From Patescibacteria group bacterium (GTDB lineage Bacteria; Patescibacteriota; Minisyncoccia; HO2-45-28): a DNA stretch of 64,000 nucleotides. Where the stretch lies: NCBI GenBank assembly GCA_038064075.1, contig JBBTTU010000004.1, positions 647-64,646 of the forward strand. The letters are read 5' to 3'. Made by a program: the position numbers and the translations under genes. Under the pieces are notes generated by a model. It was not told where the DNA came from, ran no database searches, and was given only the letters and a program-made list of their open reading frames with translations. Below are positions 5,883 through 37,668 of the stretch, one piece after another. Position 1 is the first letter of the stretch. Each line of letters opens with the position of its first letter.

Positions 5883-5887
5883 GTGAT

Positions 5888-9098: not shown

Positions 9099-9117
9099 AG
9101 ACATTAGAAAACTTAAC

Positions 9118-10587
9118 ATGCTAAGAGAAGGAAAAATTCAAATAATCAAATATGCTCCGCCTCCGCCGGAATTGCCGGTCTATAAATATGTTGATCCGCG
9201 CGAAACCGTCTTTTTCGGCCGGACCAATTATGTCGCCGGACTTGAAGAGAAAAGATTTATTTTCGGCATTAAAAGAAAAGACCGCCGGCGCCATATGTAT
9301 GTCGTCGGCAAAAGCGGCGTCGGAAAAAGCAAACTATTGGAAATGATGATCCGTCAGGATATCCGCTACGGCCACGGGCTTTGCTTGATTGATCCTCACG
9401 GCGACGTGATTGAGGAGATTTTGAAGTTCATTCCCGAAGAGCGCGCTCGCGATACGGTTATCATTGATCCTTCGGATATTGACTGGCCGGTTTCTTTTAA
9501 TCCTTTGCAAAATATCAATCCCGAACTGAAGCACCAAGTCGCCCAAGGTTTGATTGAAGTGATGGAAAAGCAGTTCGGCGCGAACTGGACGCCTCGTTTG
9601 GAACATGTTTTTCGTTTTACGGTGCTGGCGCTTCTGGATTTTCCGATGGCCACCATGCGCGGAATGATTTCAATGCTGACTGACCGGAGATACCGTCAGA
9701 AAGTCGTGGAGTTCATCGGCGATGAGATGGTCAAACGTTTCTGGGCGATAGAATTTGCCGACTGGTCGGAAAAATTTGACACCGAGGCCATTATTCCTTT
9801 GGTCAACAAGCTCGGCCAGTTTTTATCCAATCCTTATTTGCGCCATATTTTCGGCCAACGCGAAAATAAAATTGATTTGGAACATATAATGAACAGCCGT
9901 AAAATACTCCTGATCAACCTTTCCAAAGGGAAACTGGGCGAAGAAAATTCAAGCTTTTTCGGTTCAATATTCATCACCAAGATCAAGCAGGCCGGAATGG
10001 CCCGGGCGGCCGTGGCCGAGAGCGAACGCAAAGATTTTTATCTTTATGTTGATGAATTTCATAATTTGGTCACAACCACTTTTGAAAATTTATTTTCCGA
10101 AGCCAGAAAGTACGGCCTTAATATGATTGTGGCCCACCAGTATATGGGCCAGCTTTTGCCGCGGGTGCATGATACGGTTTTGGGCAATGTCGGCACCATT
10201 GTCGTTTTCAGGGTCGGAGGAGACGACGCCGCCAAACTGGAGAGCGAAATGACGCCGGTTTTTAAAGCCAAAGACATGATTAATCTCGGCATGCAGGAAT
10301 TCTACGTAAAAATGACCATTGACGGCGACACTTCCGATCCTTTCTCGGCTGAAACGCTCAAAGTCTTGCCAACGGCGCACCAATCGTTTAAAGAAGAAAT
10401 TATTGATTTTTGCCGCAAAAATTACGCCGCTCAAGCCCAAGAAGTGAAACGAAAAATTACTGAAGAGGAAACCGAACTTTTGGGCCTTGCTCCCGAAGAA
10501 GAAAAAAAAGAAGAAGCGTCTTCGGCGGTTTCTCAAGCGCCCGGCGAAAAATCGGAAAATTCTCAAAACTCCGAACCTCTTGTCTGA
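9118..10587 (+). CDS. Soluble VirD4/TraG/TrwB-type (type IV coupling-protein-like, FtsK/HerA superfamily) P-loop ATPase. NCBI-style name: type IV secretion system DNA-binding domain protein.
   Basis: Walker A 'HMYVVGKSGVGKSKLL', 'GLCLIDPHGDV', Walker B 'DFYLYVDEFHNL' and Q-motif 'IVAHQYMGQL' occur in canonical T4CP order. There is no TM anchor. The C-terminus is acidic. The start is chosen at the internal ATG at 9118 (MLREGK) to avoid overlapping the upstream gene. Confidence 0.7.
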   Translation: MLREGKIQIIKYAPPPPELPVYKYVDPRETVFFGRTNYVAGLEEKRFIFGIKRKDRRRHMYVVGKSGVGKSKLLEMMIRQDIRYGHGLCLIDPHGDVIEEILKFIPEERARDTVIIDPSDIDWPVSFNPLQNINPELKHQVAQGLIEVMEKQFGANWTPRLEHVFRFTVLALLDFPMATMRGMISMLTDRRYRQKVVEFIGDEMVKRFWAIEFADWSEKFDTEAIIPLVNKLGQFLSNPYLRHIFGQRENKIDLEHIMNSRKILLINLSKGKLGEENSSFFGSIFITKIKQAGMARAAVAESERKDFYLYVDEFHNLVTTTFENLFSEARKYGLNMIVAHQYMGQLLPRVHDTVLGNVGTIVVFRVGGDDAAKLESEMTPVFKAKDMINLGMQEFYVKMTIDGDTSDPFSAETLKVLPTAHQSFKEEIIDFCRKNYAAQAQEVKRKITEEETELLGLAPEEEKKEEASSAVSQAPGEKSENSQNSEPLV

Positions 10588-10620
10588 AATAAAATTTGCA
10601 GACATAATTTAAATAATCCC

Positions 10621-12564
10621 ATGGCCATTCAAAAAGAAAGAGTTTATTTTGCCAGAACAAATTTTAGAGGTCAGAATAAAATTTTCGGCATTAAATTGCC
10701 GGATCGCCGGCAGCATATGTATGTTGTCGGGAAAACCGGCACCGGCAAAACCAACCTGATCAAAAATATAGCCATTCAGGATATAAACTCCGGCCGGGGC
10801 CTCTGCGTTGTTGATCCTCACGGCGAGCTAGTTGAAGAACTTTTGGAAAAAATTCCGAAAGAACGCTCCAAAGACGTGATTTATTTCAATCCGGCCGACT
10901 CGGAACATCCTCTGGGTTTCAACGTCTTGGAAGTTCCCGATAAAAAATACAAGCATTTGATTGCGCAGGGCCTGATCGGAATTTTTACCAAAATCTGGGC
11001 CAATGTCTGGTCGGCCCGGATGGAGTATATTTTAAATAACTGCATTTTGGCCTTGATTGAAACGCCGGGCACCACGCTCTTGGGCATTCAGCGCATTTTG
11101 ACCGACAAAGATTACCGCCAGCGGATTTTAGCCAATGTAACCGACCCGGTCGTGCGCGCTTTTTGGATGAATGAATATGAAGTCTGGCAGGATCGCTTCC
11201 GCAACGAAGCCATTGTTCCGATTCAAAATAAAGTCGGCCAGTTCGTCGCGACATCTTTGATCCGAAACATTGTCGGCCAGGCCAAATCAAGCTTTGAAGT
11301 TTTTGAGTTGATGAACGAGGGCAAAATTCTTCTGGTCAATATTTCCAAAGGCCGGATTGGCGAGGAAAATTCAATGCTTTTGGGAGCCATGCTTATCACT
11401 AAAATTCAGCTGGCGGCCATGGAACGGGTCCGCATCCCCGAAAATGAAAGGCGCGATTTTTATCTTTATGTTGACGAGTTCCAGAATTTCGCCACCGAAT
11501 CGTTTGCTTCCATTCTTTCCGAAGCCAGAAAATACCGGCTTAATCTGATTATTTCGCATCAATACACCGGCCAGCTGATTAGCCAGACGACAACGACGAT
11601 CCGCGACGCCGTTTTCGGCAATGTCGGCACGATGATTTTTTTCAGAGTCGGAGCGACCGACGCCGAGTTTCTGGAAAAAGAAATCACGCCCGAATTCGTC
11701 ATAGACGACCTCGTCAATCTGCCCAATTACAATATTTATCTCAAATTAATGGTTGACGGCATATCAACCCGGCCTTTTTCGGCCGTTACCATACCGCCTT
11801 TGGCCACGACCGCCGATATGGCCGATCCGAAAATTATCGTTGATAATTCCCGAAAGCAATATGCCCGATCGGCAAACAAGGTTGAAGGAGATATCAAGCG
11901 CTGGAGTTCTTCTTTGCCGGGAACGACTGAAGCCGAAGAAGAATTTTTCACCGAAGGCGGATCCGCCTATGGCGGAAAAGTTAAAACCGGCGACAAATTT
12001 GAAAGTCCGTGCTGGATTTGCAAAAAAACCGCGTCAGTTCCTTTCAAGCCCGACGGCCAAAGGCCGGTCTATTGCTCGGAGTGTTTGAAAAAGATTGAAG
12101 CCGGCCAACTGCGGCCTTTGCGTCCGCTGCCGACGGCCGGAAAAGAGCGCGAAGAATTCGGCGGAGAACTCGGTGAATTGGGCATTGAGTTTAATTTGCC
12201 TCAAAATAAGGTAAAGACATTCTCAAAGCCGGGCTTCAAAGCTCCGCATCCGGAATTTTCGCCGAAAGCCCGGCCCGCGCCCGGAAAAATTATGCCGAAT
12301 ATCAGAGAGGGCGAATTGGTGGTCAAGGATGTTAAGCCAAAACGCGCGCTTTCTTTGCAAGATTTGAAGCCGCGGGCAGAAAAATCAAAACCAAAAGAAT
12401 CTAATTTGGATGAATTGCGCCGGGTTCTGAAAGAATCGCTTGCCAAAGAAGAAAAACCGATGGCCGAAACTCAAAAAAATCAGAATGCGGCGCCGTCTTC
12501 ACAAAAGGAGCCGTCTTCCAAATCAGGCGTGCTTAAACCCGGCGAGTCAATAAAATTTGAATAA
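10621..12564 (+). CDS. Paralogous soluble VirD4/TraG-type P-loop ATPase with a C-terminal CxxC...CxxC zinc ribbon and a long K/P/E-rich disordered tail.
   Basis: 'HMYVVGKTGTGKTNLI', 'GLCVVDPHGELV', 'DFYLYVDEFQNF', 'IISHQYTGQLI'. The core is collinear with the 9118 protein. Zinc ribbon 'CWICKKTASVPFKPDGQRPVYCSEC'. The tail is rich in K, P and E. Confidence 0.7.
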   Translation: MAIQKERVYFARTNFRGQNKIFGIKLPDRRQHMYVVGKTGTGKTNLIKNIAIQDINSGRGLCVVDPHGELVEELLEKIPKERSKDVIYFNPADSEHPLGFNVLEVPDKKYKHLIAQGLIGIFTKIWANVWSARMEYILNNCILALIETPGTTLLGIQRILTDKDYRQRILANVTDPVVRAFWMNEYEVWQDRFRNEAIVPIQNKVGQFVATSLIRNIVGQAKSSFEVFELMNEGKILLVNISKGRIGEENSMLLGAMLITKIQLAAMERVRIPENERRDFYLYVDEFQNFATESFASILSEARKYRLNLIISHQYTGQLISQTTTTIRDAVFGNVGTMIFFRVGATDAEFLEKEITPEFVIDDLVNLPNYNIYLKLMVDGISTRPFSAVTIPPLATTADMADPKIIVDNSRKQYARSANKVEGDIKRWSSSLPGTTEAEEEFFTEGGSAYGGKVKTGDKFESPCWICKKTASVPFKPDGQRPVYCSECLKKIEAGQLRPLRPLPTAGKEREEFGGELGELGIEFNLPQNKVKTFSKPGFKAPHPEFSPKARPAPGKIMPNIREGELVVKDVKPKRALSLQDLKPRAEKSKPKESNLDELRRVLKESLAKEEKPMAETQKNQNAAPSSQKEPSSKSGVLKPGESIKFE

Positions 12565-18355: not shown

Positions 18356-19690
18356 ATGTTTTCAGGTTTTATCAAAAGAGAACGAGCGATTTTAACTGTT
18401 ATTTTTTTGGTTTTTATCGCAAGCGCGGCATACGCTTTTTATTATCGCATCAGGCCGTCGGTTGACGCCGGAGTTTATGACCAAACAGCGGTTAATATTG
18501 CTCAAGGCTACGGCTTCAGGTTTGATCGGTCCTTGCCGATAGCCGAAGACTCAATAATTACTTTTCAGGGCCCGATTTATCAATACTTTCTGGCCGGCAT
18601 TTATCTGATTTTTGGACATCATTATGAGGCGGTCTGGCTGATTCAAGCGTTATTGAGGGCTTTTACGGCTTTAATTTTATATTTGACAGCCGTTAATATT
18701 TTTGGCCCGGAGGGCAGGCGGATCGGCTGGATTTCAGCCGCTATTTTCGGTTTTCATCCCGATCTGATTGAAATCGGAGCGATGCTTATGACCGAAACAT
18801 TTTTTATATTTTTGTCGGTGCTCGCGGTTTATGTATTCGTTATTTTATATAAAAATCGGTCTTATCTAAATTCTTTTTTTTTAGGACTTTTTTTTGGTCT
18901 GGCCGTTCTCGGCCGTTCAAGCGTCGGAATTTTTCTTTTGCCTTTCGGATTTTATTTTATTTCCCGCAAAGAGTACGCGAAATTTGTTCTATTTTTAGTG
19001 ACGCTTATTTTAGTAATGACTCCGTGGACTATAAGAAACTACAAAGTTTACGGCGAGTTTATTCCGACTATGGCCAACTTCGGCTATAATTTTTGGGTCG
19101 GCAATCACGAGGGCGGGGACGGCGAAGGCGGAAATACGCCGGAACTGGCCGCGGCCCAGAAAGAATACGGCTATATCGGAGCCAATTATTATGCCGCCAG
19201 TCAATTTAAAAAATTCGTCGCGGATCATCCTCTTCAATATATAAAATTTACAATTTCACGAACTGTAAAATATTTCAGTTTCATGCGCCCGATGGGATTT
19301 TGGTTTTATCAGCGGGGGTTGGGACAATTTATTTTTGTCGCCGGTTCCGTATTAGGTTCATTGATTTTGTTTTGGACCGGTTTTGCCGGAATTTTTATCT
19401 GGTTTAAAAAAGAAAAAGAAAACAGACTCCTCGGTTATTTTTTCAGCTTCGTTTTTTTCAGCGTTTTATCGCTGGTTCTGATTTTGTATGAAACCCGTTA
19501 TCGTTTGCCGGTTTATCCGTTTTCGGCTTTATTTTCCGGTTTGGCTTTAAGCCGCCTATATTTTGCGCCAAAAGAATATTTCCGATATTTCGTTGCCGCC
19601 GGAATTGCTATTTTATTCCTTGCCGCCGCCAGTGTTGCCATGGATTATGAAAAAATATTTCAGAAATTCAAACAAATTTTTGAAACTTAA
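18356..19690 (+). CDS. Polytopic GT-C glycosyltransferase, PMT_2/GT39/ArnT-like (polyprenyl-phosphate-sugar dependent).
   Basis: At least 10 TM helices. The loop-1 motif 'DAGVYDQTAVNIAQGYGF' (D..xY...A.N...G.G) is shared with the 22192, 24230 and 46168 proteins. Confidence 0.6.
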   Translation: MFSGFIKRERAILTVIFLVFIASAAYAFYYRIRPSVDAGVYDQTAVNIAQGYGFRFDRSLPIAEDSIITFQGPIYQYFLAGIYLIFGHHYEAVWLIQALLRAFTALILYLTAVNIFGPEGRRIGWISAAIFGFHPDLIEIGAMLMTETFFIFLSVLAVYVFVILYKNRSYLNSFFLGLFFGLAVLGRSSVGIFLLPFGFYFISRKEYAKFVLFLVTLILVMTPWTIRNYKVYGEFIPTMANFGYNFWVGNHEGGDGEGGNTPELAAAQKEYGYIGANYYAASQFKKFVADHPLQYIKFTISRTVKYFSFMRPMGFWFYQRGLGQFIFVAGSVLGSLILFWTGFAGIFIWFKKEKENRLLGYFFSFVFFSVLSLVLILYETRYRLPVYPFSALFSGLALSRLYFAPKEYFRYFVAAGIAILFLAAASVAMDYEKIFQKFKQIFET

Positions 19691-20883
19691 TGATGCCCAA
19701 AAAAATTTTAATCATCACTCCCCGTTTTCCTCTGCCGGACACCGGCGCTTGCGAGAAAGACCGTTTTGAAGGCATAAAACAGTTCAAAAGATTGGGGTTT
19801 GACGTCAGGGTTGTCTCAAAAGTTTTTTCTTTTCAGGACAAGAAAGACATAGAAAAATTTTCGGCCGACTTCGGAATTCCGGTAAAACTTTTGGAATATG
19901 AAAATAAATTCAGCCTCAGAAAATTTTTTAATCCTTTTTATTGGGATGGCGCGGCCCATGAATATTCCGGTAAATCAACTCAAGAAGCCGTTGAAGCCAT
20001 TTTAGACGAGTGGCATCCGGATCTGGTTTGGTTTGACTACACTTATCTTTGGCCGCTTTACGGTCTGGCCGGACGAAGAAAAATACCGATTATCACCCGC
20101 TCGATCAATTTTGAACCGGATCATTTTTTACAGGAAGACGGATATTCATTGTTGAACTTAATTAAATTTTTACCTAAATTGGCAAGCGAAATAATAACCA
20201 TTTATAAAAGCGATTTTTTATTTGCGATCACGCCTAACGAAGAAAAAATTTACAGGCGTCTTGGCGCAAAAAATATTAAAACACTGCCGCTTCGCGGCTT
20301 ATCATTATGTTTTAATTCCATTCACGGCGTAAATAATAAAGATATTCTTAACGTGTTTTTTATGGGTTCAACTTATAATGTCCACCATAACCGGGCGGCG
20401 CTTGAATTTATTTTAAAAAAAATAGCGCCGGAAGCGCGCAAAAAATATCCGTTAAAATTTAAGTTTTATATTTTAGGCAGCAAGGTGCCTGAAGATTTGA
20501 CAAAATTTTTCGGCGAGGACATTATTTATGTCGGCCACAAAAATCATGAAGCTCTTGATGAATTTTTGGCTGGGATGGATATAGCGATCGTGCCGTCTCT
20601 TTTCGGCGCCGGCATGCAGCAGAAAATTTTTGAGCCGCTTTGCCGCGGAATTCCGGCCGTCGCGTCTTTGAGGGGTCTCGCCGGCTATCCGTTTGAACAT
20701 CGCAAGCATCTGCTCGCGGCCGAAACTCTTGGTGAATTTCCGGATTTATTATCGGAGCTTCGCGACGCGGGCCTGCGGCGGAGTCTTTCTGAAAATTCGG
20801 TCGCTCTGTCAAAGAAATTATTTTCCAGCCAGGCTTCGGATTCCGGTATATTAAAAGCCCTAAATCAAGTTTGGCGGCATTGA
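19690..20883 (+). CDS. Glycosyltransferase, GT-B fold (GT4/GT1-like).
   Basis: N-terminal 'KILIITPRFPLPDTGACEKDRF'. C-terminal 'DIAIVPSLFGAGMQQKIFEPLCRGIPAVAS' resembles the GT-B nucleotide-sugar binding region. Confidence 0.45.
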   Translation: MMPKKILIITPRFPLPDTGACEKDRFEGIKQFKRLGFDVRVVSKVFSFQDKKDIEKFSADFGIPVKLLEYENKFSLRKFFNPFYWDGAAHEYSGKSTQEAVEAILDEWHPDLVWFDYTYLWPLYGLAGRRKIPIITRSINFEPDHFLQEDGYSLLNLIKFLPKLASEIITIYKSDFLFAITPNEEKIYRRLGAKNIKTLPLRGLSLCFNSIHGVNNKDILNVFFMGSTYNVHHNRAALEFILKKIAPEARKKYPLKFKFYILGSKVPEDLTKFFGEDIIYVGHKNHEALDEFLAGMDIAIVPSLFGAGMQQKIFEPLCRGIPAVASLRGLAGYPFEHRKHLLAAETLGEFPDLLSELRDAGLRRSLSENSVALSKKLFSSQASDSGILKALNQVWRH

Positions 20884-20923
20884 TTAATAAAAAAAAATAT
20901 TTTAAGATGAGCAGATAATTCAA

Positions 20924-22135
20924 ATGGCCTGCTTTATTTGCAATCAGGATAATTTATTTAATTTTTTGGATCTCGGCCTTCAACCGCCGAGCAACGCTTT
21001 TATTCGCAAGGAAGATTTGTCAAAATCCGAAGAAATTTATTCTTTAAAGCCTTGTTTTTGCGAGTTTTGCGGTCTGGTGCAGTTAAATTATATCGTTGAT
21101 CCCAGAAAAATATTCATAGATTACGTCTACAACACTTCCACCAACAACAGCCTTAAAGAGAATTTTCAAAATTTGGTCGGATTGATTGTCGGGCGTTTCA
21201 ATTTAAAAAAAGGGGATTTTGCCGTTGATATCGGTTCAAACGACGGAACGCTTTTGTCTTATTATTTGCCGCGCGGCATTAAGATTTTGGGGGTTGATCC
21301 GTCTAACGTCACCAAACTGGCTCTGGAAAAAAACATACCGACGATTGTTGATTTTTTTTCCGAGCGAGTCGCCGCAGACATCATTAAAAAATACGGCCAA
21401 GCCAAAGCGGTGACGGCCACCAATGTTTTTGCCCATGTGGACAAGCTGTATGATTTTATGGCCGGCATTACCAAGCTGTTGGCCAAAGACGGCGTTTTTA
21501 TTTCCGAATCGCAGTATCTTTTGGATACGATCGCCAAACTGCACTACGATTTGATTTATCACGAGCATCTTCGTTATTACTCTTTAAAACCGCTTGCGAT
21601 TTTATTTAATAAGTTCGGCATGGAGATTTTTGACGCCGAGCGCATTTCTTCCCACGGCGGCTCAATCAGGGTTTACGCCGCCAAATCCGGAGAGTATCCG
21701 GTTTCCGAATCCGTTGCCGCTTTGATGAAAAATGAAGAATCAAGCGGTCTTTATCGCAAGGAAACTTTTACGGATTTTGCGGATAAAGTCAGCCGAAATA
21801 AATTTGAATTTCTGGAAATTATCAAAGATATAAAAGGGCGCGGCCAGCGTATAGTCGGCATCGGGGCGCCGGCCAAAGGCAATACTTTGCTGAATTATTA
21901 CGGCATGAATCCGGACATTATTGATTATCTTGTTGAAAAAAGCGAGCTTAAAATAGGAACGTTTGCGCCTGGCACCCGTATACCGGTTGTAGCAGAGTCA
22001 AAATTGTTCAAAGATCAGCCGGAATACGCTTTGCTGCTGTCTTGGAATTTGGCAGACGAGCTTATTCCCAAAATAAGAAACAAGGGGTACAAAGGCAAAT
22101 TTATCGTGCCTATGCCCAAGCCGACGGTTTTGTAA
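20924..22135 (+). CDS. SAM-dependent sugar C-methyltransferase with an N-terminal zinc ribbon (Methyltransf_13 + Methyltransf_14 architecture, TylCIII/NovU-like).
   Basis: N-terminal 'CFICNQDNL...CEFCGLVQLNY' Cys4 ribbon. 'VDIGSNDGTLL' SAM motif I. C-terminal 'IVGIGAPAKGNTLLNY' C-methyltransferase domain. Paralog of the gene at 52920-54164. Confidence 0.65.
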   Translation: MACFICNQDNLFNFLDLGLQPPSNAFIRKEDLSKSEEIYSLKPCFCEFCGLVQLNYIVDPRKIFIDYVYNTSTNNSLKENFQNLVGLIVGRFNLKKGDFAVDIGSNDGTLLSYYLPRGIKILGVDPSNVTKLALEKNIPTIVDFFSERVAADIIKKYGQAKAVTATNVFAHVDKLYDFMAGITKLLAKDGVFISESQYLLDTIAKLHYDLIYHEHLRYYSLKPLAILFNKFGMEIFDAERISSHGGSIRVYAAKSGEYPVSESVAALMKNEESSGLYRKETFTDFADKVSRNKFEFLEIIKDIKGRGQRIVGIGAPAKGNTLLNYYGMNPDIIDYLVEKSELKIGTFAPGTRIPVVAESKLFKDQPEYALLLSWNLADELIPKIRNKGYKGKFIVPMPKPTVL

Positions 22136-22191
22136 TTTTTACAGCGCGCTAAATTTTGAAATTCTGACAATTTCTTGCTACTATTTCAGCA

Positions 22192-23496
22192 ATGAACAGC
22201 TTCCGGCCGCGCATTGGGGAATGCCGGCATTATTTTCTTTTTTTAATCATCGGCCTTGTCGTCGTTGCCAGGATCGGCGCGGCGGCGGTTTTGTACGCGA
22301 AAAATGTTTTTCCTTCGCCGATTCAGGATCCGCTTGAATACCGCAATTTGGCGATGAATATCTTGGCCGGAAACGGATTCAGCATTGCTCAAAATCCTCC
22401 CTATCCGCCGGACCTTTTTCGCACGCCGCTTTATCCTTTATTTCTTGCCGCGACATACGGCATTGATTCGGCCGGCTACCTCGCGATATTATTGCAGCAG
22501 TTGATGATTATTGCGTCGGCATGGCTGCTTTTTAAAATTTTGCGTCGCTGGAACGATTCTTCCGGGAAAATTGCGCTGATATTTTCTTTGTTTCTGCTTG
22601 TCGATCCCCGAATTTGGTTTTGGTCGCTTGAAACCATGACTGAAGCTCTTTTTATTTTTTTGACGGCGGCGATGCTGTTTTTATTGCTTTATCCGGAAAA
22701 TTTTAACACGGCGCATGTTGCCGGCGCGGCAGTGTTTTTTGGTCTGGCCGTTTTAACCCGTCCTTCCGGATTATTGTGGGCTCCGGGACTCGTTCTTTTT
22801 TTTCTGTTTTGCAAAAAACCGGTTAAATCCAGATTATTTATGTTTTTCATTTTTATGGCGGTTGCCGGTATCGTTGTTTCGCCGTGGTTATGGCGGAATT
22901 ATAAACTGGTCGGCAGGCCGATTTTGTCTTCAATGCAGACGGTTAATTATATTCAGGCGTTTGGAATCGGCCGGGATGATCCGTCGTGGCGATGCTCGGA
23001 TTCAATTGTTGATTCAAAAGGCCGCGAAGGGTGCGTATTTTACGGCTGGACGGCCGCCGGATTTTCCGATGCCGAAAAAACAGCCCGGAATTTGCGCGCG
23101 AACACGCCTGTTTTTTCTTTAATCAAAAAAAACATGACAGGCGCTTATCATTTTTGGAAATCCAACGATTATCCCGACGCTTTGAGCATTTTGCGCAGCG
23201 CCGCGCTTGGCGCCGGAAAACCCATATCCCGGACATGGCAGATATTGGCCGAAGCGTCCCATAAAACCTACGCCGCTTTTTTGAATTTTATGCTGATTTT
23301 AGGGGTTGCCGGACTTGTTTTTTTATATAAAAAGAGGGAATTGGCGGCGGCAGGTTTGTTGGGAGGCATTATTTTTTCCAGCGTTTTTATAAATTTCGGA
23401 TTGGCTTCCGGACGCCTTCATTTGATTCTTTTGCCGCCGCTTTTCTATCTTGCCGGACTGGGGACTGTTTTTATCAAACAAATTTATCAACAATGA
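22192..23496 (+). CDS. Polytopic GT-C glycosyltransferase, PMT_2/GT39-like.
   Basis: 'DPLEYRNLAMNILAGNGF' and 'FRTPLYPLFLAATYG' motifs shared with the paralogs. Multiple TM helices. Confidence 0.6.
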   Translation: MNSFRPRIGECRHYFLFLIIGLVVVARIGAAAVLYAKNVFPSPIQDPLEYRNLAMNILAGNGFSIAQNPPYPPDLFRTPLYPLFLAATYGIDSAGYLAILLQQLMIIASAWLLFKILRRWNDSSGKIALIFSLFLLVDPRIWFWSLETMTEALFIFLTAAMLFLLLYPENFNTAHVAGAAVFFGLAVLTRPSGLLWAPGLVLFFLFCKKPVKSRLFMFFIFMAVAGIVVSPWLWRNYKLVGRPILSSMQTVNYIQAFGIGRDDPSWRCSDSIVDSKGREGCVFYGWTAAGFSDAEKTARNLRANTPVFSLIKKNMTGAYHFWKSNDYPDALSILRSAALGAGKPISRTWQILAEASHKTYAAFLNFMLILGVAGLVFLYKKRELAAAGLLGGIIFSSVFINFGLASGRLHLILLPPLFYLAGLGTVFIKQIYQQ

Positions 23497-23511
23497 ATCC
23501 CGCATAAATAT

Positions 23512-24237
23512 ATGAAATTATCAGTTGTTATTCCGGCTTATAACGATCAGGAGAATATTGAAGAGACGATAAAAAATCTTTATCGGAAGCTGAACGCTGA
23601 AAAAATAGAGCACGAACTGCTGGTGATCCACGACGAATGTCCAAACGATAAAAGCGGCGAAATTGCAATTTCTCTTTTGCCGAAAATTCCAACTCTCCAT
23701 TATATAAAAAAATCTCCTCCGCGGGGTTTTGGTTTGGCTTTGCGCAAGGGCTTGGAGTTTTTTTCCGGAGACGCCGTGGCATTTTATATGGCCGACGGTT
23801 CTGATTCGCCCGGCGACCTTGTTTCGTATTTCAGAACAATGGAAAAAGAAAATGTTGATTGCGTATTCGGTTCCAGATTTATACCCGGCGGCAAAATGAT
23901 CAATTATCCGCGGGTAAAGTATATTTTCAACAGGCTCGGCAACCATTTTATCAAGATTTTATTCGGTTTGCAGTATAACGATTTTACCAATGCCTTTAAA
24001 CTTTATCACCGCAGAGTTATTGAGAAAACTCAGCCGTTTGCAGGCCAACATTTTAATTTTACGGTGGAATTAGTGCTTAAATCCCTGACGGGCGGGCACA
24101 CTTTTCGGGTGGTGCCGAACAGCTGGAAAGGGCGGTCAGCGAGCGAATCTAATTTTAATATTAAAAAGATGGTGTTTCTGAATCTTTTGACGATTTTTAA
24201 CTGTTTGATTAAAAAACATTTTTTTAAAAATGATTGA
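23512..24237 (+). CDS. Glycosyltransferase family 2, polyprenyl-phosphate mannose/glucose synthase-like (Dpm1/Ppm1-like).
   Basis: 'LSVVIPAYNDQENIEETI' GT2 N-terminus, the acidic 'YMADGSD' motif, 241 aa soluble. Adjacent to a GT39-like gene. Confidence 0.65.
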   Translation: MKLSVVIPAYNDQENIEETIKNLYRKLNAEKIEHELLVIHDECPNDKSGEIAISLLPKIPTLHYIKKSPPRGFGLALRKGLEFFSGDAVAFYMADGSDSPGDLVSYFRTMEKENVDCVFGSRFIPGGKMINYPRVKYIFNRLGNHFIKILFGLQYNDFTNAFKLYHRRVIEKTQPFAGQHFNFTVELVLKSLTGGHTFRVVPNSWKGRSASESNFNIKKMVFLNLLTIFNCLIKKHFFKND

Positions 24238-25603
24238 TCTTTTCAATAAATACAAGCACTTCGCCGTTATTTTCTTTTTATGGCTCATTCTTTGGAGCGC
24301 TCTTTTTTTGACCGAATATCGCCGCGGAAATCTGAATGCCGATATTTTAACTTCGGATCCCCTTGAATATTATGCCGCGTCGGTAAATTTGTATCAGCGC
24401 GGCGTTTTTTCGCGGATGAGCGAGGCGCCTTTTACGCCGGATCGTTTCCGCACGCCGCTCTATCCGCTGGTCGCCGGAGCAATGCTCAAGATTTTTAACG
24501 GCATTGCCGCGGTTTACGTATTCCAGTTTATCTTATTTTATTTAAGCGCGATCGGCGTCTACCGCATTGCCGAATTTCTATGGAATTCAAAACAAATCGC
24601 GTTTATCGCCGCGTTGGCGTTTATTTTCAACCCGGTGTCATTTTTACTGGTGAACAGTTTTATGTCCGAAATTTTATTTTTGTTTTTGCTGATATTCGGA
24701 GTCTATTATTTCTTGCGGCATATAAAATCGGGATCAGCTGTTTTATTTGCGCTGTCGGCGGCTCTTTTTTCTTTAAACGCTCTCGTCAGACCGGTCGGCC
24801 TTTATTTTGCCTTATTTGTTTTTTTATATTCCGTTTTGGCGAATTTTAATCTCAGAAAATTATTTATAAATACTTTTGTTTTTGCCGTTGTCTTTGCTGC
24901 GATTTTATTTCCGTGGTTTTTGCGCAACAGGATTATTTTCGGAGACTGGTATTTTACTTCAGCCGACCTGGTCAATATTTATTATATGCATCTTGGGCAT
25001 CTTTACGGCTGGCAGAATAATCTTGAACTTCACGAATCTTTTGCCGCGTTGGGAAAATCGTGCGTTCGGTCCGGAATTTCAGAGGATTATCACGGCTTGT
25101 GCGTGAATTCCCGATTAAGAGAGCTTTATCTGCCGGTTTTTTTGCAAATCCGTCCGTCGGTCATATTTAAATATATGACTTTGGGCGGCGTCAGATTTTT
25201 ATTCAATGACGGATTTAATGAATTGGGTAATTGGTTCTGCCAGCATAAATGTTCTAAAGCGCCCGTTAATATCATTGACGATTTGGTTCGCGGCGGGAAG
25301 AATATTTTTTCAATTATCGCCAGTAAACCGCCGTCGCTCCTTTACACTTGGATTATCGGCAAGATTGTCTGGGCTGGCATATTTCTTTTCGCCGCATTTT
25401 TATTGTTGAATTGGCAAAAATTTGGAATTGATAAAAAATACTTTATTTTTATTTTAATGATTCTGGTTTATTTTTTCTTGATTTCCATTCCGGCTTGGAC
25501 CACCCGCTACCGGGCGCCGTTTGATCCCTTTATATTTTTGATTGCGGCTCCCGGGTTTTGGTATTTAAAAAATCGCCTGTATGTGCGCCATAAACGGATT
25601 TAA
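24230..25603 (+). CDS. Polytopic GT-C glycosyltransferase, PMT_2/GT39-like.
   Basis: 'DPLEYYAASVNLYQRGVF' and 'FRTPLYPLVAGAML' motifs. Multiple TM helices. Overlaps the upstream GT2 by 8 nt. Confidence 0.6.
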   Translation: MIDLFNKYKHFAVIFFLWLILWSALFLTEYRRGNLNADILTSDPLEYYAASVNLYQRGVFSRMSEAPFTPDRFRTPLYPLVAGAMLKIFNGIAAVYVFQFILFYLSAIGVYRIAEFLWNSKQIAFIAALAFIFNPVSFLLVNSFMSEILFLFLLIFGVYYFLRHIKSGSAVLFALSAALFSLNALVRPVGLYFALFVFLYSVLANFNLRKLFINTFVFAVVFAAILFPWFLRNRIIFGDWYFTSADLVNIYYMHLGHLYGWQNNLELHESFAALGKSCVRSGISEDYHGLCVNSRLRELYLPVFLQIRPSVIFKYMTLGGVRFLFNDGFNELGNWFCQHKCSKAPVNIIDDLVRGGKNIFSIIASKPPSLLYTWIIGKIVWAGIFLFAAFLLLNWQKFGIDKKYFIFILMILVYFFLISIPAWTTRYRAPFDPFIFLIAAPGFWYLKNRLYVRHKRI

Positions 25604-27446
25604 TTTTTCAAACCGCGATCTCGTTCAAAAAATGAATCTGGCCAATCGCCATCGCGGGCCTGACGCTTCGGCTGTTTTTAGCGAAGACGGAATTTCTTTG
25701 GGCCATAATCGTTTAAGCATCATTGATTTGTCGGAAAAAGCCGCCCAGCCGATGAAAAGTTTTGACGAGCGCGAAATTATAGTTTTTAACGGCGAAATTT
25801 ACAATTTTAAAGAGCTTAAAGACGAATTAAGCGAATTTTACCCTTTCAGGAGCGACAGCGATACCGAAGTAATTTTGGCGGCTTTCCGCAAGTGGGGCGC
25901 CGATTGCGTCAGGAAATTTAACGGCATTTTTGCTTTCGCCATTTGGGACAGGACCAAGCGCGAAATTTTTTTAGCCCGCGACCATATCGGCGTTAAGCCT
26001 TTATATTATTATTTTGACCCTTCAATAAGTTCAGGGCAAGCGGCAAAATTCATATTTTCTTCCGAAATTAAGTCTATTTTAGAACACCCGATTCCGCGCC
26101 GGCTTAATCTGGAAGCTTTTAGTCATTATTTGCGGGTTTTATACGTTCCCGAGCCTTTGACGATGTTTGAAGGAATTTATAAATTTCCCCAAGCCAGCCG
26201 CGGTTTTTATAAGGACGGCAAGCTGAAAATAGAAAAATATTGGGATATCCAACCCGGCAGTTATTTGCCTATTTCAAAAACGGATATGGAAGAAGAATTA
26301 AGAAACAAAATAGAGCAAGCCGTTGGAGCGCAATTGGTATCTGACCGGCCGCTTGGTCTTTATTTGTCAGGAGGCATTGATTCATCGGTAATTCTCTCGC
26401 ATATGTCAAAAATGCGGGACGGCATTGACACTTTTTCAGTCGGTTTTGAACTTAAAGAAAAAGAGCAGAAAGAAAAATTTAACGCCGATTTTGAGCTGGC
26501 TAAAAAAACTGCTTTGTTTTTTGGTTCCAATCATAACGAGGTTTTAATTTATCCCGCTGAAGTTTTTGAGTTTTTGGAAAAAGCGGTTTGGCATATGGAT
26601 GAGCCGATATCCAATCCGACGGCTGTTGCGATGCTCAAACTGTCGGAATTCAGTAAAAAAAAAGTTGATGTAGTGCTGGCCGGCGACGGCGGAGATGAGC
26701 TTTTCGGCGGCTATGAGCGCTATCGTTTGAGCCGTTTGATGAATATTTTTCAGAAATTGCCAAGATTTTTTCGTTCAGCAACGGTTTTGAATTCAAAAAT
26801 GCGGAAATTAAATACTCCGTTGGGAATTGAACGTTTTATTTTGTTTATGTTTCAGAAAGACGCGATTTTAAACCGAGTTGTTTCCGGCCAATTTTTTAAC
26901 CCTGATATATCCAAGTTATTTTTTGAAAAAAGATATTTTGATGTTTCCGCCGGAGGCGGACCAGCTTGCGGCCGGGAAGAACAATTGATGAATATTGACA
27001 GGCAGACTTGGCTGGTTGATTTCGCTTTAATGCTTGGCGATAAAATGTCTATGGCTAATGGTGTTGAGGCCCGCGTTCCTTTTTTGGATAAAAATTTAGC
27101 GGAATTTGCCGCGCGCATTCCTTTAAAATTTAAAGTTGGTTTTTTCAACACCAAGAAAATTTTAAAAAGCGCTTATCGCGGCCGAATTCCGGATTTTCTT
27201 TTAAATCAGCCCAAGCGCGGCTGGTTTTCACCCGGAGCCAAATGGCTGCGGATGGATGAAATTCGCGATAAAGCCAAAGAGGCGCTGTCGGCGAACTATT
27301 ATTCCGAAACGCGCCATCTTTTTAATTGGTCCGAACTGCGACAAGTTTTTGACAAACACCTTTCCGGCCGGGAATATAATTTGACCATACTTTGGGCAAT
27401 TGTCACGTTCCAAATATGGGCTAAAAAGTATAATATAAGCCTATGA
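25581..27446 (+). CDS. Asparagine synthase (glutamine-hydrolysing) family amidotransferase, AsnB/WbpS-like.
   Basis: N-terminal 'MCAINGF' (catalytic Cys2 of class-II GATase), 'DGISLGHNRLSIIDL', and the synthetase domain 'LGLYLSGGIDSSVI' PP-loop. Confidence 0.8.
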   Translation: MCAINGFNFSNRDLVQKMNLANRHRGPDASAVFSEDGISLGHNRLSIIDLSEKAAQPMKSFDEREIIVFNGEIYNFKELKDELSEFYPFRSDSDTEVILAAFRKWGADCVRKFNGIFAFAIWDRTKREIFLARDHIGVKPLYYYFDPSISSGQAAKFIFSSEIKSILEHPIPRRLNLEAFSHYLRVLYVPEPLTMFEGIYKFPQASRGFYKDGKLKIEKYWDIQPGSYLPISKTDMEEELRNKIEQAVGAQLVSDRPLGLYLSGGIDSSVILSHMSKMRDGIDTFSVGFELKEKEQKEKFNADFELAKKTALFFGSNHNEVLIYPAEVFEFLEKAVWHMDEPISNPTAVAMLKLSEFSKKKVDVVLAGDGGDELFGGYERYRLSRLMNIFQKLPRFFRSATVLNSKMRKLNTPLGIERFILFMFQKDAILNRVVSGQFFNPDISKLFFEKRYFDVSAGGGPACGREEQLMNIDRQTWLVDFALMLGDKMSMANGVEARVPFLDKNLAEFAARIPLKFKVGFFNTKKILKSAYRGRIPDFLLNQPKRGWFSPGAKWLRMDEIRDKAKEALSANYYSETRHLFNWSELRQVFDKHLSGREYNLTILWAIVTFQIWAKKYNISL

Positions 27447-28459
27447 AAATTAACAAGGTTTTAATCACCGGAGGCGCCGGTTTTTTGGGTTTTAATTTGG
27501 CTCACAGTCTTTTGAGCAAAGGCGTGGATACGGTGGTTTGCGATAATTTGTCGCGCCGCGGAGCAGAACTTAATTTAGCCGAATTGAAGCATCATCATCA
27601 AGCCGCCCTGAAATTTTATCAGGTTGAAATAAGCGATGTTCCGGCGGTAATTGTTAAAGAAAAACCGGATTTGATTTATCATTTTGCGGCTCAAGTCGCG
27701 GTAACGACAAGCGTTGCCAGTCCGGTGAGCGATTTTCGGATAAACGCCGAAGGTTCTTTTTTGGTGGCCAAAACCGCGCACGATCACGGCATTCCGGTGA
27801 TTTATTCCTCAACCAACAAAGTTTACGGCATAAATGTAAATAAGGTTCCGCTTGAAGAATTTGATACCCGATATGATTTTGCCGGTGGCCTGCGGAAAAA
27901 AGGAATAGGCGAAAATTTTTCAATTGACGCCCATCATCACACTCCTTACGGCTGTTCAAAACTGGTCGGCGAAATATATGTGCGCGAATACGGCGGCGTT
28001 GCCAACAGATTTTCCTGCATGTACGGCCCCAACCAGTACGGCATAGTGGATCAGGGCTGGCTTTCGTATTTTATCGCCAGGAAATTGGCCGGCAAGCCTT
28101 TGACAGTTTTTGGCGACGGTAAACAGGTTCGCGACGCCCTGCATATAAAAGATGTCGTGAAGCTTCTTGAACTGCAAGGCGAGAGACTGTTTGACGATTC
28201 AAAGCCGAGCATAAAAGGCGAAGTTTTTACGATCGGCGGAGGATATCTAAACACCATTTCGCTTCTTGAACTTTGCAAAAAATTGGACATAAAACCCGAA
28301 TTCGGCGATTGGCGGCCGGCGGACCAGAAAGTTTTTTATTGCGATATTTCCAAAGCCAAGGAAGTTCTGGGCTGGCAGCCGCAGGTAAGCATTGAAGACG
28401 GTTTGAAAGAATTGCTGGATTGGACCAAGAAGAGACTGGCGCATTTCCCGCATTCATAA
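27443..28459 (+). CDS. NAD-dependent epimerase/dehydratase (SDR), CDP-paratose/tyvelose 2-epimerase-like.
   Basis: 'VLITGGAGFLGFNLA', 'VCDNLSRRGAELNL', 'YSSTNKVYG', 'HTPYGCSK', 'DQGWLSYF', 'FGDGKQVRDALHIKD'. The resemblance to RfbE-type epimerases is recalled from memory, not searched. Confidence 0.6.
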   Translation: MKINKVLITGGAGFLGFNLAHSLLSKGVDTVVCDNLSRRGAELNLAELKHHHQAALKFYQVEISDVPAVIVKEKPDLIYHFAAQVAVTTSVASPVSDFRINAEGSFLVAKTAHDHGIPVIYSSTNKVYGINVNKVPLEEFDTRYDFAGGLRKKGIGENFSIDAHHHTPYGCSKLVGEIYVREYGGVANRFSCMYGPNQYGIVDQGWLSYFIARKLAGKPLTVFGDGKQVRDALHIKDVVKLLELQGERLFDDSKPSIKGEVFTIGGGYLNTISLLELCKKLDIKPEFGDWRPADQKVFYCDISKAKEVLGWQPQVSIEDGLKELLDWTKKRLAHFPHS

Positions 28460-32441: not shown

Positions 32442-33725
32442 ATGAATTCCGTTAGAAAGTCAGCAAAACGCGGCAATATGTCTAATTATAAAAAAGGGAA
32501 TCCTGCAAAGAATTTTTCTAACGGGGTGAAATCGCCGACTCGCGAAATATGCATTATTGGAGGCGCCGGACACGTCGGCCTGCCTTTGGGGGTCGCTTTT
32601 GCTTTAAATAAAGTAAAAACGGTTCTGTTTGATATTAACAAAGAAAGCCTGAAAAAGATCAAGTCGGGAGTTTTCCCATTTAAAGAAAAAGACGGCCCTA
32701 AATATTTAAAGCAGGTTCTTAAAAAAAAGACGCTTTTTGTTTCTTGGACTCCTAAGGCAATAATGCAAAGCCGTTTCGTTTTTTTGGTTGTTGGAACGCC
32801 GATTGACGAATATCTTAATCCGCACATTAAGGGAATTTTTAAAGTTTTGGACGATTATTTTGATTATTTCCGCGACGGCCAGATTATAATTTTGCGCAGC
32901 ACTATCTATCCGAACACGTCCGAGAGAATCCAGCGGTATTTTGAGGAAAGAAAAAAGAAAATACAAGTCGCGTTTTGTCCGGAAAGAATTGTGGAAGGAA
33001 ACGCTTTGCATGAACTTCAGAATCTGCCGCAGATTATTTCCGCTTTTGATCCGGGAACGCTTGAGGCCGTAAAAAATCTTTTCGGAAAATTGACAAAAAG
33101 AAAGTTAATTCCCGTTAAGCCGATAGAGGCCGAACTGGCAAAATTATTCTGCAATGCCTGGCGATACATTCATTTCGCCATTGCCAACCAGTTTTTTATG
33201 ATTGCTTCCGACCACGGGCTGGATTATTCCAAAATTCACAGCGCGATGATTGAGGATTATGATAGGAATAAAGACATTCCCCGGCCCGGATTCGCGGCTG
33301 GGCCGTGCCTGCTGAAAGACACCATGCAGCTGGCCGCGTTCAACAATAATAATTTTTTCTTGGGGCACACCGCCATGCTTATCAACGAAGGTTTGCCCAG
33401 CCACATTATGCATAAATTGTCCCAGGAATTTCCCGACATCAAAACCAAAACTGTGGGCATACTCGGCATGGCTTTCAAAGCCGACAGCGACGATCATCGC
33501 GACAGCCTGTCGTTCAAGCTCAGAAAAATCGCCGAAACGAAATGCAAAAAAGTTTTATGCCACGACTTTCATATTAAAAGTCCGTCTTTTCATCCGCTTT
33601 CCAAAGTATTAAAACAATCCGATATTATAGTGTTGGCCGCTCCCCACAAACAATACAAAGATCTTGATATGGGCAAATACAAGGACAAAAAAATCGTGGA
33701 TATTTGGAATTTCTGGGGTTTGTAA
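32442..33725 (+). CDS. Nucleotide-sugar dehydrogenase (UDP-glucose/GDP-mannose dehydrogenase family).
   Basis: 'ICIIGGAGHVGLPLGVAFA' Rossmann fold, central 'GFAAGPCLLKDT' catalytic Cys region, 'GMAFKADSDDHRDS' C-terminal domain. The true start may be the ATG at 32478. Confidence 0.7.
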   Translation: MNSVRKSAKRGNMSNYKKGNPAKNFSNGVKSPTREICIIGGAGHVGLPLGVAFALNKVKTVLFDINKESLKKIKSGVFPFKEKDGPKYLKQVLKKKTLFVSWTPKAIMQSRFVFLVVGTPIDEYLNPHIKGIFKVLDDYFDYFRDGQIIILRSTIYPNTSERIQRYFEERKKKIQVAFCPERIVEGNALHELQNLPQIISAFDPGTLEAVKNLFGKLTKRKLIPVKPIEAELAKLFCNAWRYIHFAIANQFFMIASDHGLDYSKIHSAMIEDYDRNKDIPRPGFAAGPCLLKDTMQLAAFNNNNFFLGHTAMLINEGLPSHIMHKLSQEFPDIKTKTVGILGMAFKADSDDHRDSLSFKLRKIAETKCKKVLCHDFHIKSPSFHPLSKVLKQSDIIVLAAPHKQYKDLDMGKYKDKKIVDIWNFWGL

Positions 33726-33752
33726 AACGGCCGACACTGGTGTCGGCCGTTT
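33725..33752. terminator. Bidirectional rho-independent terminator hairpin between convergent genes.
   Basis: Perfect 12-bp inverted repeat AAACGGCCGACA / TGTCGGCCGTTT with a 4-nt loop (CTGG), T-rich on both flanks. Confidence 0.7.
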
Positions 33753-33761
33753 GGCTCCGAA

Positions 33762-34478
33762 TTATTTTGGAGGAGTAAAGGGCAAAAGGCCGGCTTCTTC
33801 CCAGACTTCTTTCACCCTTTCAATGTAGTCCAGCATAAATTTCGCGTGTTTTGCGGCAAGGGCTTGCGCCTTGGGCAGGCGAATGCCGAATTTTGGATCA
33901 TTGAAATTGCCCCACTCGGCGCAATGAGACAGGTCTTTAATCACCGATCTTGGCTCTTTGAAAGTCGCGGCGGGGTCAGACAGCCAGTAAATGGGGTCAA
34001 CCGCCGGAACTTTGTGAAATTGACCCGAACGTATAATCTCGTCCGGCTCCAAATTTATCAAACGATCCGCGTCTCTTAAAGCCACCAGTACTTGACTATC
34101 ATCGGGATCATTTGGCAGACTGTGTTTAAGCACAGCGCCGATAATTATTGATCTTTCTTCTGCATGCAAATCAATTTCATCAAGCCATTTGTTGACCAAA
34201 TCCGCAATTATTTCTTCCGGAACCTCTTTTTTGCCGATTTTTAGTTCGTGTTGAAGTATTCGGTCGGCGTTATGGCAGAGTCCGGCAATTGCAGCAAGCC
34301 TGGCTGTGGCTTGGTCCTCCGCAATGTTGAAAGCATGTTGTCCGGCTCTGGCGGCATGAAAGGGGTCGTGTCCGCCGGTTGACATATTCGCCTTAACATG
34401 GCGATCATAAATTGCTTTCCAAAGCCCGGGAAAAATTTTAATGACTTTTTCGCCTCGGGCTTTCCTGTCAGAACTCAT
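33762..34478 (-). CDS. HD-domain-like hydrolase (putative).
   Basis: 'GGHDPFHAARAG', 'LCHNADR' and 'DADRL' fit an H..HD..H..D metal-binding pattern. Weak. Confidence 0.35.
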   Translation of the reverse strand: MSSDRKARGEKVIKIFPGLWKAIYDRHVKANMSTGGHDPFHAARAGQHAFNIAEDQATARLAAIAGLCHNADRILQHELKIGKKEVPEEIIADLVNKWLDEIDLHAEERSIIIGAVLKHSLPNDPDDSQVLVALRDADRLINLEPDEIIRSGQFHKVPAVDPIYWLSDPAATFKEPRSVIKDLSHCAEWGNFNDPKFGIRLPKAQALAAKHAKFMLDYIERVKEVWEEAGLLPFTPPK

Positions 34479-34568
34479 TTTGAACCCTCCTTAGTTTAAA
34501 ATTAAAAGTTCAAAGGTCAATATCCACCGATATTATATATTTAAAAATATTTTTGTCAATTTAAGGAC

Positions 34569-37663: not shown

Positions 37664-37668
37664 CAATT

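Follow-up and report, generated by a model that had tools for sequence, protein, structure and literature searches.

Two zinc-ribbon sugar C-methyltransferase genes of separate clades in a Patescibacteria surface-glycan locus, one of them in a module with a GDP-mannose 4,6-dehydratase

When C-branched sugars are discussed, it is usually as antibiotic decorations or as rare O-antigen components. The stretch of DNA analysed here (the window, 64,000 nucleotides from a Patescibacteria group bacterium) contains two open reading frames that a preliminary description had read as paralogous zinc-ribbon C-methyltransferases of nucleotide-activated sugars, which raises the question of what these two genes encode, on which nucleotide sugar their products would act, and what to make of two such genes in a single glycan locus. 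The reading that we favor, with a probability of roughly 80%, is that both are methyltransferases of the TylC3/MtmC/TcaB9 type, that copy 2 works through a module consisting of a GDP-mannose 4,6-dehydratase (Gmd), a small cupin and a DegT-family aminotransferase, and that copy 1 leads to a second C-branched sugar. As an annotation this is a sound assignment to a known kind of enzyme and holds no surprise. What it adds is that the copies represent two old clades of the family, that a small cupin is a new partner in conserved modules linked to GDP-mannose, and that copy 1 stands as an orphan. The features of the window that are discussed below are collected in Table 1.

Table 1 Position and strand of the two C-methyltransferase genes, their domains and the surrounding genes in the window
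Feature	Position	Strand	Remarks
Copy 1 setting	18356-25603	+	co-directional glycosyltransferase array (Pfam)
GT-C (PMT_2)	18356-19690	+	Pfam
GT4-like	19690-20883	+	Pfam
C-methyltransferase copy 1	20924-22135	+	403 aa, ATG start
Copy 1 zinc-binding domain (PF08421)	residues 3-64 = nt 20930-21115	+	
Copy 1 SAM domain	residues 96-235 = nt 21209-21628	+	
Copy 1 catalytic YHEH	residues 212-215 = nt 21557-21568	+	
Copy 1 C-terminal PF08484 domain	residues 243-398 = nt 21650-22117	+	
GT-C	22192-23496	+	Pfam
GT2	23512-24237	+	Pfam
GT-C	24230-25603	+	Pfam
Candidate second keto-sugar module	32442-36656	mixed	without a C-methyltransferase of its own
NDP-sugar 6-dehydrogenase	32442-33725	+	
238-aa protein of no assigned family	33762-34478	-	
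SDR (SSNEAY...YAATK motif; SDR336 type)	34569-35579	+	
Gfo/Idh/MocA (GFO) oxidoreductase	35580-36656	-	
Polytopic membrane protein	51126-52907	+	593 aa, at least 7 hydrophobic segments (hydropathy), convergent with copy 2
C-methyltransferase copy 2	52920-54164	-	414 aa, ATG start
Copy 2 C-terminal PF08484 domain	residues 255-409 = nt 52938-53402	-	
Copy 2 zinc-binding domain (PF08421)	residues 13-74 = nt 53943-54128	-	
DegT/DnrJ/EryC1-family sugar aminotransferase	54189-55304	-	PF01041 308 bits; same operon, 24 nt upstream of copy 2
Small cupin	55294-55698	-	134 aa; 11-nt overlap of its 3' end with the DegT start
GT4 glycosyltransferase	55713-56987	+	424 aa, Pfam; divergent from the copy 2 operon
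GDP-mannose 4,6-dehydratase Gmd	57018-58007	+	329 aa; TIGR01472 equivalog 445.5 bits, cut-off 415 (NCBIfam)

Domain architecture and catalytic residues of the two copies

The positions first given for the two open reading frames proved exact, with copy 2 on the minus strand, which the preliminary description had left unmentioned, and the encoded proteins align over their full length with 46% identity across 403 aligned residues (BLASTP, E 2e-129). Three family domains make up each protein. The N-terminal PF08421 (Methyltransf_13) domain scores 65 bits in copy 1 and 70 bits in copy 2 against a Pfam cut-off of 31.3, and the class I SAM fold (PF13489) is found at 48 bits in copy 1 and 65 bits in copy 2, above its gathering cut-off. 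For the C-terminal PF08484 (Methyltransf_14) domain, where the cut-off is 23.5, copy 1 reaches 168 bits and copy 2 reaches 131 bits, with profile positions 2-160 of 160 covered. The SAM motif I VDIGSNDGTLL is common to both copies, and the DIGSNDG within it is invariant in an alignment of the clades to which the two belong.

The zinc site and the catalytic residues were read against TcaB9, whose residue positions were checked on the PDB sequence; the literature numbering equals the SEQRES numbering minus 2. The four TcaB9 cysteines, which we take to be zinc ligands, align with C3/C6/C46/C49 of copy 1 and with C13/C16/C56/C59 of copy 2. TcaB9 residues Y76, H181, Y222, E224 and H225, presumably the active-site residues probed by mutagenesis, are identical in both copies. 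When 100 family members are aligned, 98-100 of them share the cysteine quartet and these five residues. In addition, dN/dS is 0.09 for copy 1 (measured against an 81%-identical orthologue) and about 0.08 for copy 2 (measured against its relatives), and both copies are therefore under purifying selection. Open reading frames also run on the opposite strand within both genes; these are mechanical by-products.

The preliminary description had named assignment to an N- or O-methyltransferase family, or to the WbdD-type polysaccharide terminator, as the outcome that would speak against its reading. Neither copy matches any such family above cut-off. Beyond PF08421 and PF08484, Pfam returns generic class I methyltransferase models alone, and no specific NCBIfam family is found for either copy, the matches to UbiG-like models (19-25 bits against cut-offs of 103-155) and to DVU_1556 staying below threshold. 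Among PDB matches at E ≤ 1e-3, neither copy has a solved methyltransferase of any other kind, N- and O-methyltransferases included. TylM1/DesVI-type N- and O-methyltransferases are without the zinc ribbon or PF08484, whereas both copies have both domains. A WbdD-type terminator combines a methyltransferase with a kinase and a coiled-coil ruler, whereas no kinase domain is found in either copy with Pfam or NCBIfam, and the three family domains take up the whole length of both (403 and 414 residues).

Judged by sequence, neither gene is disrupted, and both belong to the known family of zinc-ribbon sugar C-methyltransferases; the Cys4 ribbon, the SAM motif, the C-terminal domain and the TylCIII/NovU-like family membership that had been proposed all stand, the last through the Pfam architecture and through end-to-end matches to solved enzymes. 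Homology predicts for both products SAM-dependent methylation of an NDP-sugar at the carbon alpha to its keto group. Modeled on the solved homologues, the enzyme would bind a nucleotide-activated keto-sugar, and a His/Glu/Tyr set (YHEH with H171 and Y67, copy 1 numbering) would take the proton next to the ketone; the enolate would then attack the methyl group of SAM to give a C-branched sugar.

Relatives, clades and abundance

Searched against all PDB sequences, both copies have as their closest solved match MtmC of Streptomyces argillaceus (4rv9; D-mycarose 3-C-methyltransferase/4-ketoreductase), which they match end to end at E 1.3e-77 and about 34% identity. KijD1 (5t64, about 1e-63) and TcaB9 (3ndi, about 1e-61) follow, within a full range of E 1e-77 to 1e-60, and identities to the three enzymes are 31-34%. 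MtmC shares with both copies the three-domain architecture and the FDxIYHEHL catalytic segment. It differs in handling a dTDP-2,6-dideoxy-4-keto sugar in an actinomycete antibiotic pathway, whereas the window copies belong to separate clades and lie in a Patescibacteria glycan locus, by Gmd or by glycosyltransferases. TcaB9 and KijD1, the D-tetronitrose/kijanose C-3'-methyltransferases, share the zinc cysteines and the five residues at 31-33% full-length identity. Their substrate is dTDP-3-amino-2,3,6-trideoxy-4-keto-D-glucose, and their pathway needs an NDP-hexose 2,3-dehydratase, whereas the window holds no Pfam match to Hexose_dehydrat. The dTDP-linked secondary-metabolite enzymes TylC3, EryBIII and AviG1 (acting at C3) and NovU, CouU and CloU (acting at C5) belong to the same Pfam family as the window copies and share the chemistry alpha to a 4-ketone, a likeness drawn at the level of the family.

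In a neighbor-joining tree of 100 sequences (a distance tree without support values), copies 1 and 2 fall into two separate clades, called here clade 1 and clade 2, both of them far from MtmC, TcaB9 and KijD1. Among the matches listed, many relatives are 55-81% identical to copy 1, and for copy 2 the range is 59-94%. As the two copies are less similar to one another (46%) than each is to its own relatives, they are old paralogs and not the result of a local or recent duplication.

The presence of two such enzymes in a CPR-like surface-glycan locus had been called notable, an expectation that the abundance of the family does not bear out. A word-indexed search returned at least 8,000 homologues per copy at E ≤ 1e-20, the named ones among the matches listed belonging mostly to Patescibacteria and Parcubacteria lineages. 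An exhaustive HMMER search at E ≤ 1e-30 placed the size of the family at 3,977 clusters at 50% identity, and a genome scan found members in Patescibacteria, DPANN archaea, Nitrospira, Planctomycetes, Proteobacteria and others. Two family members lie at most 10 kb apart in 7 of 88 related loci. Given these thousands of homologues and the paired loci, a CPR glycan locus with two such genes is not unusual, and the family is a routine component of large surface-glycan loci in Patescibacteria and DPANN archaea. The two clades of the window copies are environmental, and the family abounds in ultra-small groundwater bacteria. The same protein sequence as that of copy 1 is present in Hainich groundwater assemblies from the 0.1 and 0.2 µm fractions; its GenBank entry, from a Patescibacteria group bacterium, carries the label class I SAM-dependent methyltransferase. 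A literature search for C-methyltransferases in Patescibacteria gave nothing useful.

The copy 2 module and the nucleotide of its substrate

A minus-strand operon carries the small cupin, then the DegT-family gene and finally copy 2, and the GT4 glycosyltransferase and Gmd are divergent from this operon. The distance from copy 2 to Gmd is 2.9 kb, inside a conserved module at 51126-58007 that also includes the membrane protein. The dehydratase passes the GDP-mannose 4,6-dehydratase equivalog (Table 1), reaches only 84 bits on dTDP-glucose dehydratase models, and is 49-51% identical to Gmd orthologues that adjoin C-methyltransferases elsewhere. The Gmd-like SDRs that were tested in four other loci (L006, L009, L010 and L012) also pass TIGR01472. 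Gmd is the likely supplier of the 4-keto-6-deoxy substrate.

The remaining genes of the module are conserved as well. The DegT-family protein keeps the lysine motif SFSLFK and is therefore an aminotransferase and not a ColD-type dehydratase; among solved structures it is closest to GDP-perosamine synthase (3bn1/3dr4, E 3e-50), with QdtB (E 1e-49) close behind. QdtB is a dTDP-3-keto-sugar aminotransferase, and the near-equal match to it is a point against a GDP-linked substrate. The small cupin has no Pfam family. Its H48 and H50 are invariant, its nearest folds are NDP-sugar ketoisomerases and epimerases, and its orthologues adjoin C-methyltransferases elsewhere (E 1e-14 to 1e-36). The FdtA/QdtA 3,4-ketoisomerases (PF05523, with a catalytic His pair) are a candidate family for the small cupin, though its membership in FdtA at the sequence level was considered and judged unlikely. 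With 35-42% full-length identity to the module GT4 of loci L005, L006, L009, L010 and L012, the GT4 at 55713-56987 is by this comparison the orthologue of the one that accompanies both C-methyltransferase clades. The 593-aa membrane protein likewise has no Pfam family and is 45-49% identical over its full length to a gene product of about 610 aa encoded directly upstream of clade-1 C-methyltransferases (L009, L010 and L012). We regard it as a conserved module partner that may transfer or polymerize the branched sugar.

Neighborhoods were compared across 92 loci plus the window (clade 1, n = 14; clade 2, n = 11; other clades, n = 72). Gmd orthologues were called by BLAST identity, which left a clean gap (at least 47% versus at most 29%); the motif NHE[SGA]P.RG misses the short 329-aa type of Gmd, including that of the window. 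Within 3 kb of the C-methyltransferase, clade-1 loci carry an aldo-keto reductase (AKR) in 10 of 14 cases, Gmd in 8 and the small cupin in 7. The corresponding figure for Gmd in the other clades is 1 of 72 (Fisher p 5e-7, with related genomes treated as independent). The module GT4 is present in 8 of the 11 clade-2 loci and in 7 of the 14 clade-1 loci, and the clade-2 C-methyltransferase is followed by a DegT gene within 3 kb in 5 of 11 loci or by GFO in two. The neighborhoods of clades 1 and 2 suggest action on GDP-mannose-derived sugars and not on the dTDP-sugars of the antibiotic type.

The nucleotide is not directly readable from the window, because no sugar-1-phosphate nucleotidyltransferase (NTP_transferase, Pfam) was found among its open reading frames of at least 120 aa. 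As the dehydratase adjacent to copy 2 is Gmd, its substrate is likely GDP-linked and not dTDP-linked, and the product of the module is likely a GDP-linked amino, C-methyl 6-deoxyhexose. The C-methylation of an NDP-keto-sugar, as first proposed, is upheld by homology, and the neighboring GDP-mannose 4,6-dehydratase speaks against the dTDP link that holds for TylC3 and NovU.

That link could still be saved if both copies were classical dTDP-sugar C-methyltransferases (TylC3/EryBIII/NovU-like) that received dTDP-4-keto-6-deoxyglucose from RmlA and RmlB encoded elsewhere, the proximity of Gmd then reflecting a mixed glycan locus. Every solved homologue works on dTDP-sugars, and in locus L012 an NTP_transferase and an FdtA/DegT set adjoin the module. 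The window, moreover, does not span the whole genome: the protein identical to copy 1 is recorded on a contig of 180,053 bp. To our knowledge, every biochemically characterized member of the family uses dTDP-sugars. We nevertheless consider this account improbable in view of the strong enrichment of Gmd beside clades 1 and 2. No SDR in the window passes the dTDP-glucose 4,6-dehydratase model (TIGR01181), the top one scoring 137 bits against a cut-off of 365, and the dTDP-glucose dehydratase-like motif TDEV[YF]G occurs, by a rough motif test, in 2 of 92 loci only, both times more than 6 kb from the C-methyltransferase.

GDP-vinelose of Azotobacter vinelandii is reportedly GDP-6-deoxy-3-C-methyl-2-O-methyl-L-talose (1960s biochemical literature) and, as a GDP-linked 3-C-methyl 6-deoxyhexose, would show that such sugars exist in nature; we know of no gene assigned to it. 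In Coxiella burnetii, the TylCIII-like CBU_0691 has been proposed in silico as an NDP-hexose 3-C-methyltransferase of virenose biosynthesis on a GDP route; TylCIII, EryBIII and AviG1 are dTDP-linked enzymes, and the TylCIII-like type has been shown to be active on TDP-sugars only (PMC3539893). By the same logic as in the copy 2 module, the TylCIII-like enzyme of Coxiella is placed in silico downstream of a GDP-mannose 4,6-dehydratase, there in an LPS pathway (PMC3539893). Compared by description, it differs from the copy 2 module in that a neutral product is proposed and neither an aminotransferase nor a small cupin is described.

With Gmd as the source of the keto-sugar, we infer the nucleotide, the methylated carbon, the order of the steps and the final acceptor for copy 2 as follows. 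Gmd would convert GDP-mannose to GDP-4-keto-6-deoxy-D-mannose, and the small cupin probably epimerises or isomerises this keto-sugar. Copy 2 would then add the C-methyl group, most likely at C3, since all solved relatives are C3 enzymes, and less likely at C5. The DegT enzyme would turn the ketone into an amine, and the GT4 at 55713-56987, the 593-aa membrane protein or both would put the amino, C-methyl 6-deoxyhexose on a surface glycan. On this reading, the family in Patescibacteria and DPANN archaea is usually tied to a GDP-mannose dehydratase and not to the dTDP pathway. Biochemical confirmation would make these the first experimentally assigned GDP-sugar C-methyltransferases, would bear on the virenose of Coxiella, whose pathway has so far been predicted only, and would open a way into the surface chemistry of ultra-small episymbiont cells.

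Copy 1 in a glycosyltransferase array

Copy 1 stands in a co-directional array of glycosyltransferase genes, in which an AsnB-like gene follows the last GT-C. None of the usual partners of its clade lies within 10 kb, and no AKR was found anywhere in the window. Copy 2 is co-located with Gmd and copy 1 in the window is not, though 8 of 14 members of its clade are. Two genes near copy 1 were tried as partners and rejected, namely the upstream GT4 at 19690-20883 as the module GT4, the orthologue of which is the gene at 55713-56987, and the SDR at 27443-28459 as a source of keto-sugar, which is CDP-tyvelose 2-epimerase-like (E 1e-66).

The top solved match of both copies, MtmC, is bifunctional: the cofactor that it binds decides its activity, NADPH making it a ketoreductase and SAM a methyltransferase (PMC10269268). 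A copy 1 without partners may therefore reduce its own product. Taken further, copy 1 might be mainly an MtmC-like NADPH-dependent 4-ketoreductase, or bifunctional, which would explain the loss of an AKR partner that 10 of 14 clade members have and that both copy 1 and its closest relative among the matches listed are without. We give this account very little weight, as SAM motif I and all methyl-transfer residues are intact in copy 1, and as MtmC is equally close to copy 2 (E 1.3e-77 for both), which has partner enzymes.

For copy 1 as a C-methyltransferase, a second source of keto-sugar has to be considered alongside Gmd. Orthologues of the SDR at 34569-35579 (45-73% identity), of the GFO oxidoreductase and of the 238-aa protein in the candidate second module flank C-methyltransferases in other genomes, and in loci L011 and L019 the orthologues of this module directly flank clade-1 genes. 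The SDR obtains similar scores for dehydratases, ArnA/UXS-like decarboxylases and 4-epimerases.

This module opens the possibility that one copy, most plausibly copy 1, acts on a substrate other than a 4-keto-hexose, either an NDP-4-keto-pentose made by the 6-dehydrogenase and an ArnA/UXS-like decarboxylating SDR, or a 3-keto uronic sugar made by a WbpB-like Gfo/Idh/MocA dehydrogenase. In clade 2, Gmd with the cupin (4 loci) and the SDR336 type (7 loci) are mutually exclusive across the 11 loci, so that this SDR takes the place of Gmd and cupin in most of them; it abuts the clade-1 genes of L011 and L019, and it usually stands beside a gene of the UDP-Glc/GDP-Man dehydrogenase family. GFO lies within 3 kb of the C-methyltransferase in 29 of 72 loci of the remaining clades, and the scores of the SDR on UXS, ArnA-type and dehydratase models are even. 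The same SDR, however, also resembles the 4-epimerases WbgU and TviC, which release no keto-sugar, and in the window the module is well separated from both copies (12.4 kb for copy 1, 16 kb for copy 2). In addition, no C-methyl pentose or uronate is known to us as a product of the TylC3/MtmC/TcaB9-type family, which counts further against such a substrate, and we think it unlikely.

A wider proposal, which we likewise regard as doubtful, is that these uncharacterized clades, widespread in CPR and DPANN, have moved off dTDP chemistry altogether. GDP-4-keto-6-deoxymannose and an undescribed cupin isomerase or epimerase would then lead, in the window, to a C-methyl perosamine-like amino sugar, and the NDP-4-keto-pentose of the other module would lead to C-branched pentoses or C-methyl Ara4N-like sugars, a class of which we know no example in prokaryotic surface glycans.

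The reading that we prefer for copy 1 remains that of a C-methyltransferase that would give the cell a second C-branched sugar, although by sequence the pair fits either of the alternatives first named, two C-methylated sugars or methylation at two positions. In the clade of copy 1, sister to that of copy 2, the usual Gmd-cupin-GT4 module followed by AKR would yield a neutral 6-deoxy-C-methyl-hexose. In the lineage of the window, copy 1 would have moved into the glycosyltransferase array, and its keto-sugar would presumably be supplied by Gmd (at 57 kb) or by the candidate second module (dehydrogenase, SDR and GFO, 32.4-36.7 kb). The gene order around copy 1 is matched around its 81%-identical orthologue (L093), the closest relative among the matches listed, and the arrangement is therefore a stable feature of the sublineage.

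Genes accompanying the C-methyltransferases

The membrane protein encoded beside the second zinc-ribbon C-methyltransferase copy (593 aa) has at least seven hydrophobic segments followed by a C-terminal soluble part of about 185 residues, and it matches no Pfam family. Its sequence is 45-49% identical to the product of the gene lying immediately upstream of clade-1 C-methyltransferases (the environmental clade holding the first window copy) in three other genomes. A candidate role for this protein is that of a GT-C-like enzyme transferring the branched sugar.

Genes for small cupins of about 130 aa consistently adjoin those for GDP-mannose 4,6-dehydratase (Gmd) and the C-methyltransferase. An HxH motif is invariant among the members of this family, which has no Pfam model and whose nearest folds are those of NDP-sugar ketoisomerases and epimerases. 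The GenBank start of the window cupin lies 17 codons further in, giving a protein of 117 aa; the homologue alignments, however, begin at residue 1 of the longer form (134 aa).

The NDP-sugar 6-dehydrogenase set is found again beside C-methyltransferases in other genomes, and within clade 2, which holds the second copy, it and Gmd plus cupin are mutually exclusive. The SDR of this set carries SSNEAY where the TDE dehydratase motif would stand. The set may constitute a decarboxylating route to a 4-keto-pentose.

Two C-methyltransferase paralogs lie no more than 10 kb apart at seven loci of other genomes (L011, L016, L018, L031, L038, L077 and L083), including those of Woesearchaeota and Methanosarcinales MAGs. 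At L011, genes for a dehydrogenase, an SDR, the C-methyltransferase and an aldo-keto reductase form a compact string with overlaps.

Other enzymes of the glycan locus

Because the locus encodes at least four PMT_2-type GT-C glycosyltransferases together with small GT2 enzymes resembling polyprenyl-phosphate sugar synthases, its content suggests extracytoplasmic glycosylation from lipid-linked donors. The five further small methyltransferases are likely O-methyltransferases, and the glycan is probably heavily methylated. Uronic acids are possible substrates for amidation by the two amidotransferases, as are other carboxylates of the glycan. The SDR that strongly resembles CDP-tyvelose 2-epimerase is inserted with an AsnB-like gene on one side and a methyltransferase gene on the other; the closest relative (L093, the locus of the 81%-identical orthologue of copy 1) has no such SDR there. 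Capsule_synth genes occur again near the C-methyltransferase module at L005, L008, L009 and L012.

Features of the window and of compared loci (L handles)
Feature	Position	Strand
Sigma-70 region 4 joined to HARE-HTH domain	5888-6916	+
Two neighbouring TrwB/TraG-like type IV coupling-protein ATPases	9046-12564	+
PMT_2-type GT-C	18356-25603; 46168-47544	
Small GT2	23512-24237; 47541-48245	
Asparagine-synthase-like glutamine amidotransferases, 621 aa each	25581-27446; 37660-39525	+
SDR, CDP-tyvelose 2-epimerase-like (PDB 9rl0, E 1e-66; 1orr, E 8e-64)	27443-28459	+
Five class I SAM methyltransferases, 204-316 aa	28467-29081; 39541-44512	
NDP-sugar 6-dehydrogenase, 238-aa unknown, SDR, Gfo-Idh-MocA oxidoreductase	32442-36656	
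Membrane protein	51126-52907	+
Small cupin	55294-55698	-
Methyltransf_24 and Capsule_synth (KpsC/KpsS-like)	58004-60306	-
Cupin homologues	L006 12678-13079; L009 10109-10498; L010 10565-10948; L012 10678-11058	
C-methyltransferase paralogs	L011 7001-8212; 11021-12241	

Further window features

The second of the two coupling-protein ATPases carries a treble-clef zinc finger (PF23477). AT skew is strongly negative (about -0.23) over positions 1-6000 compared with the remaining window.
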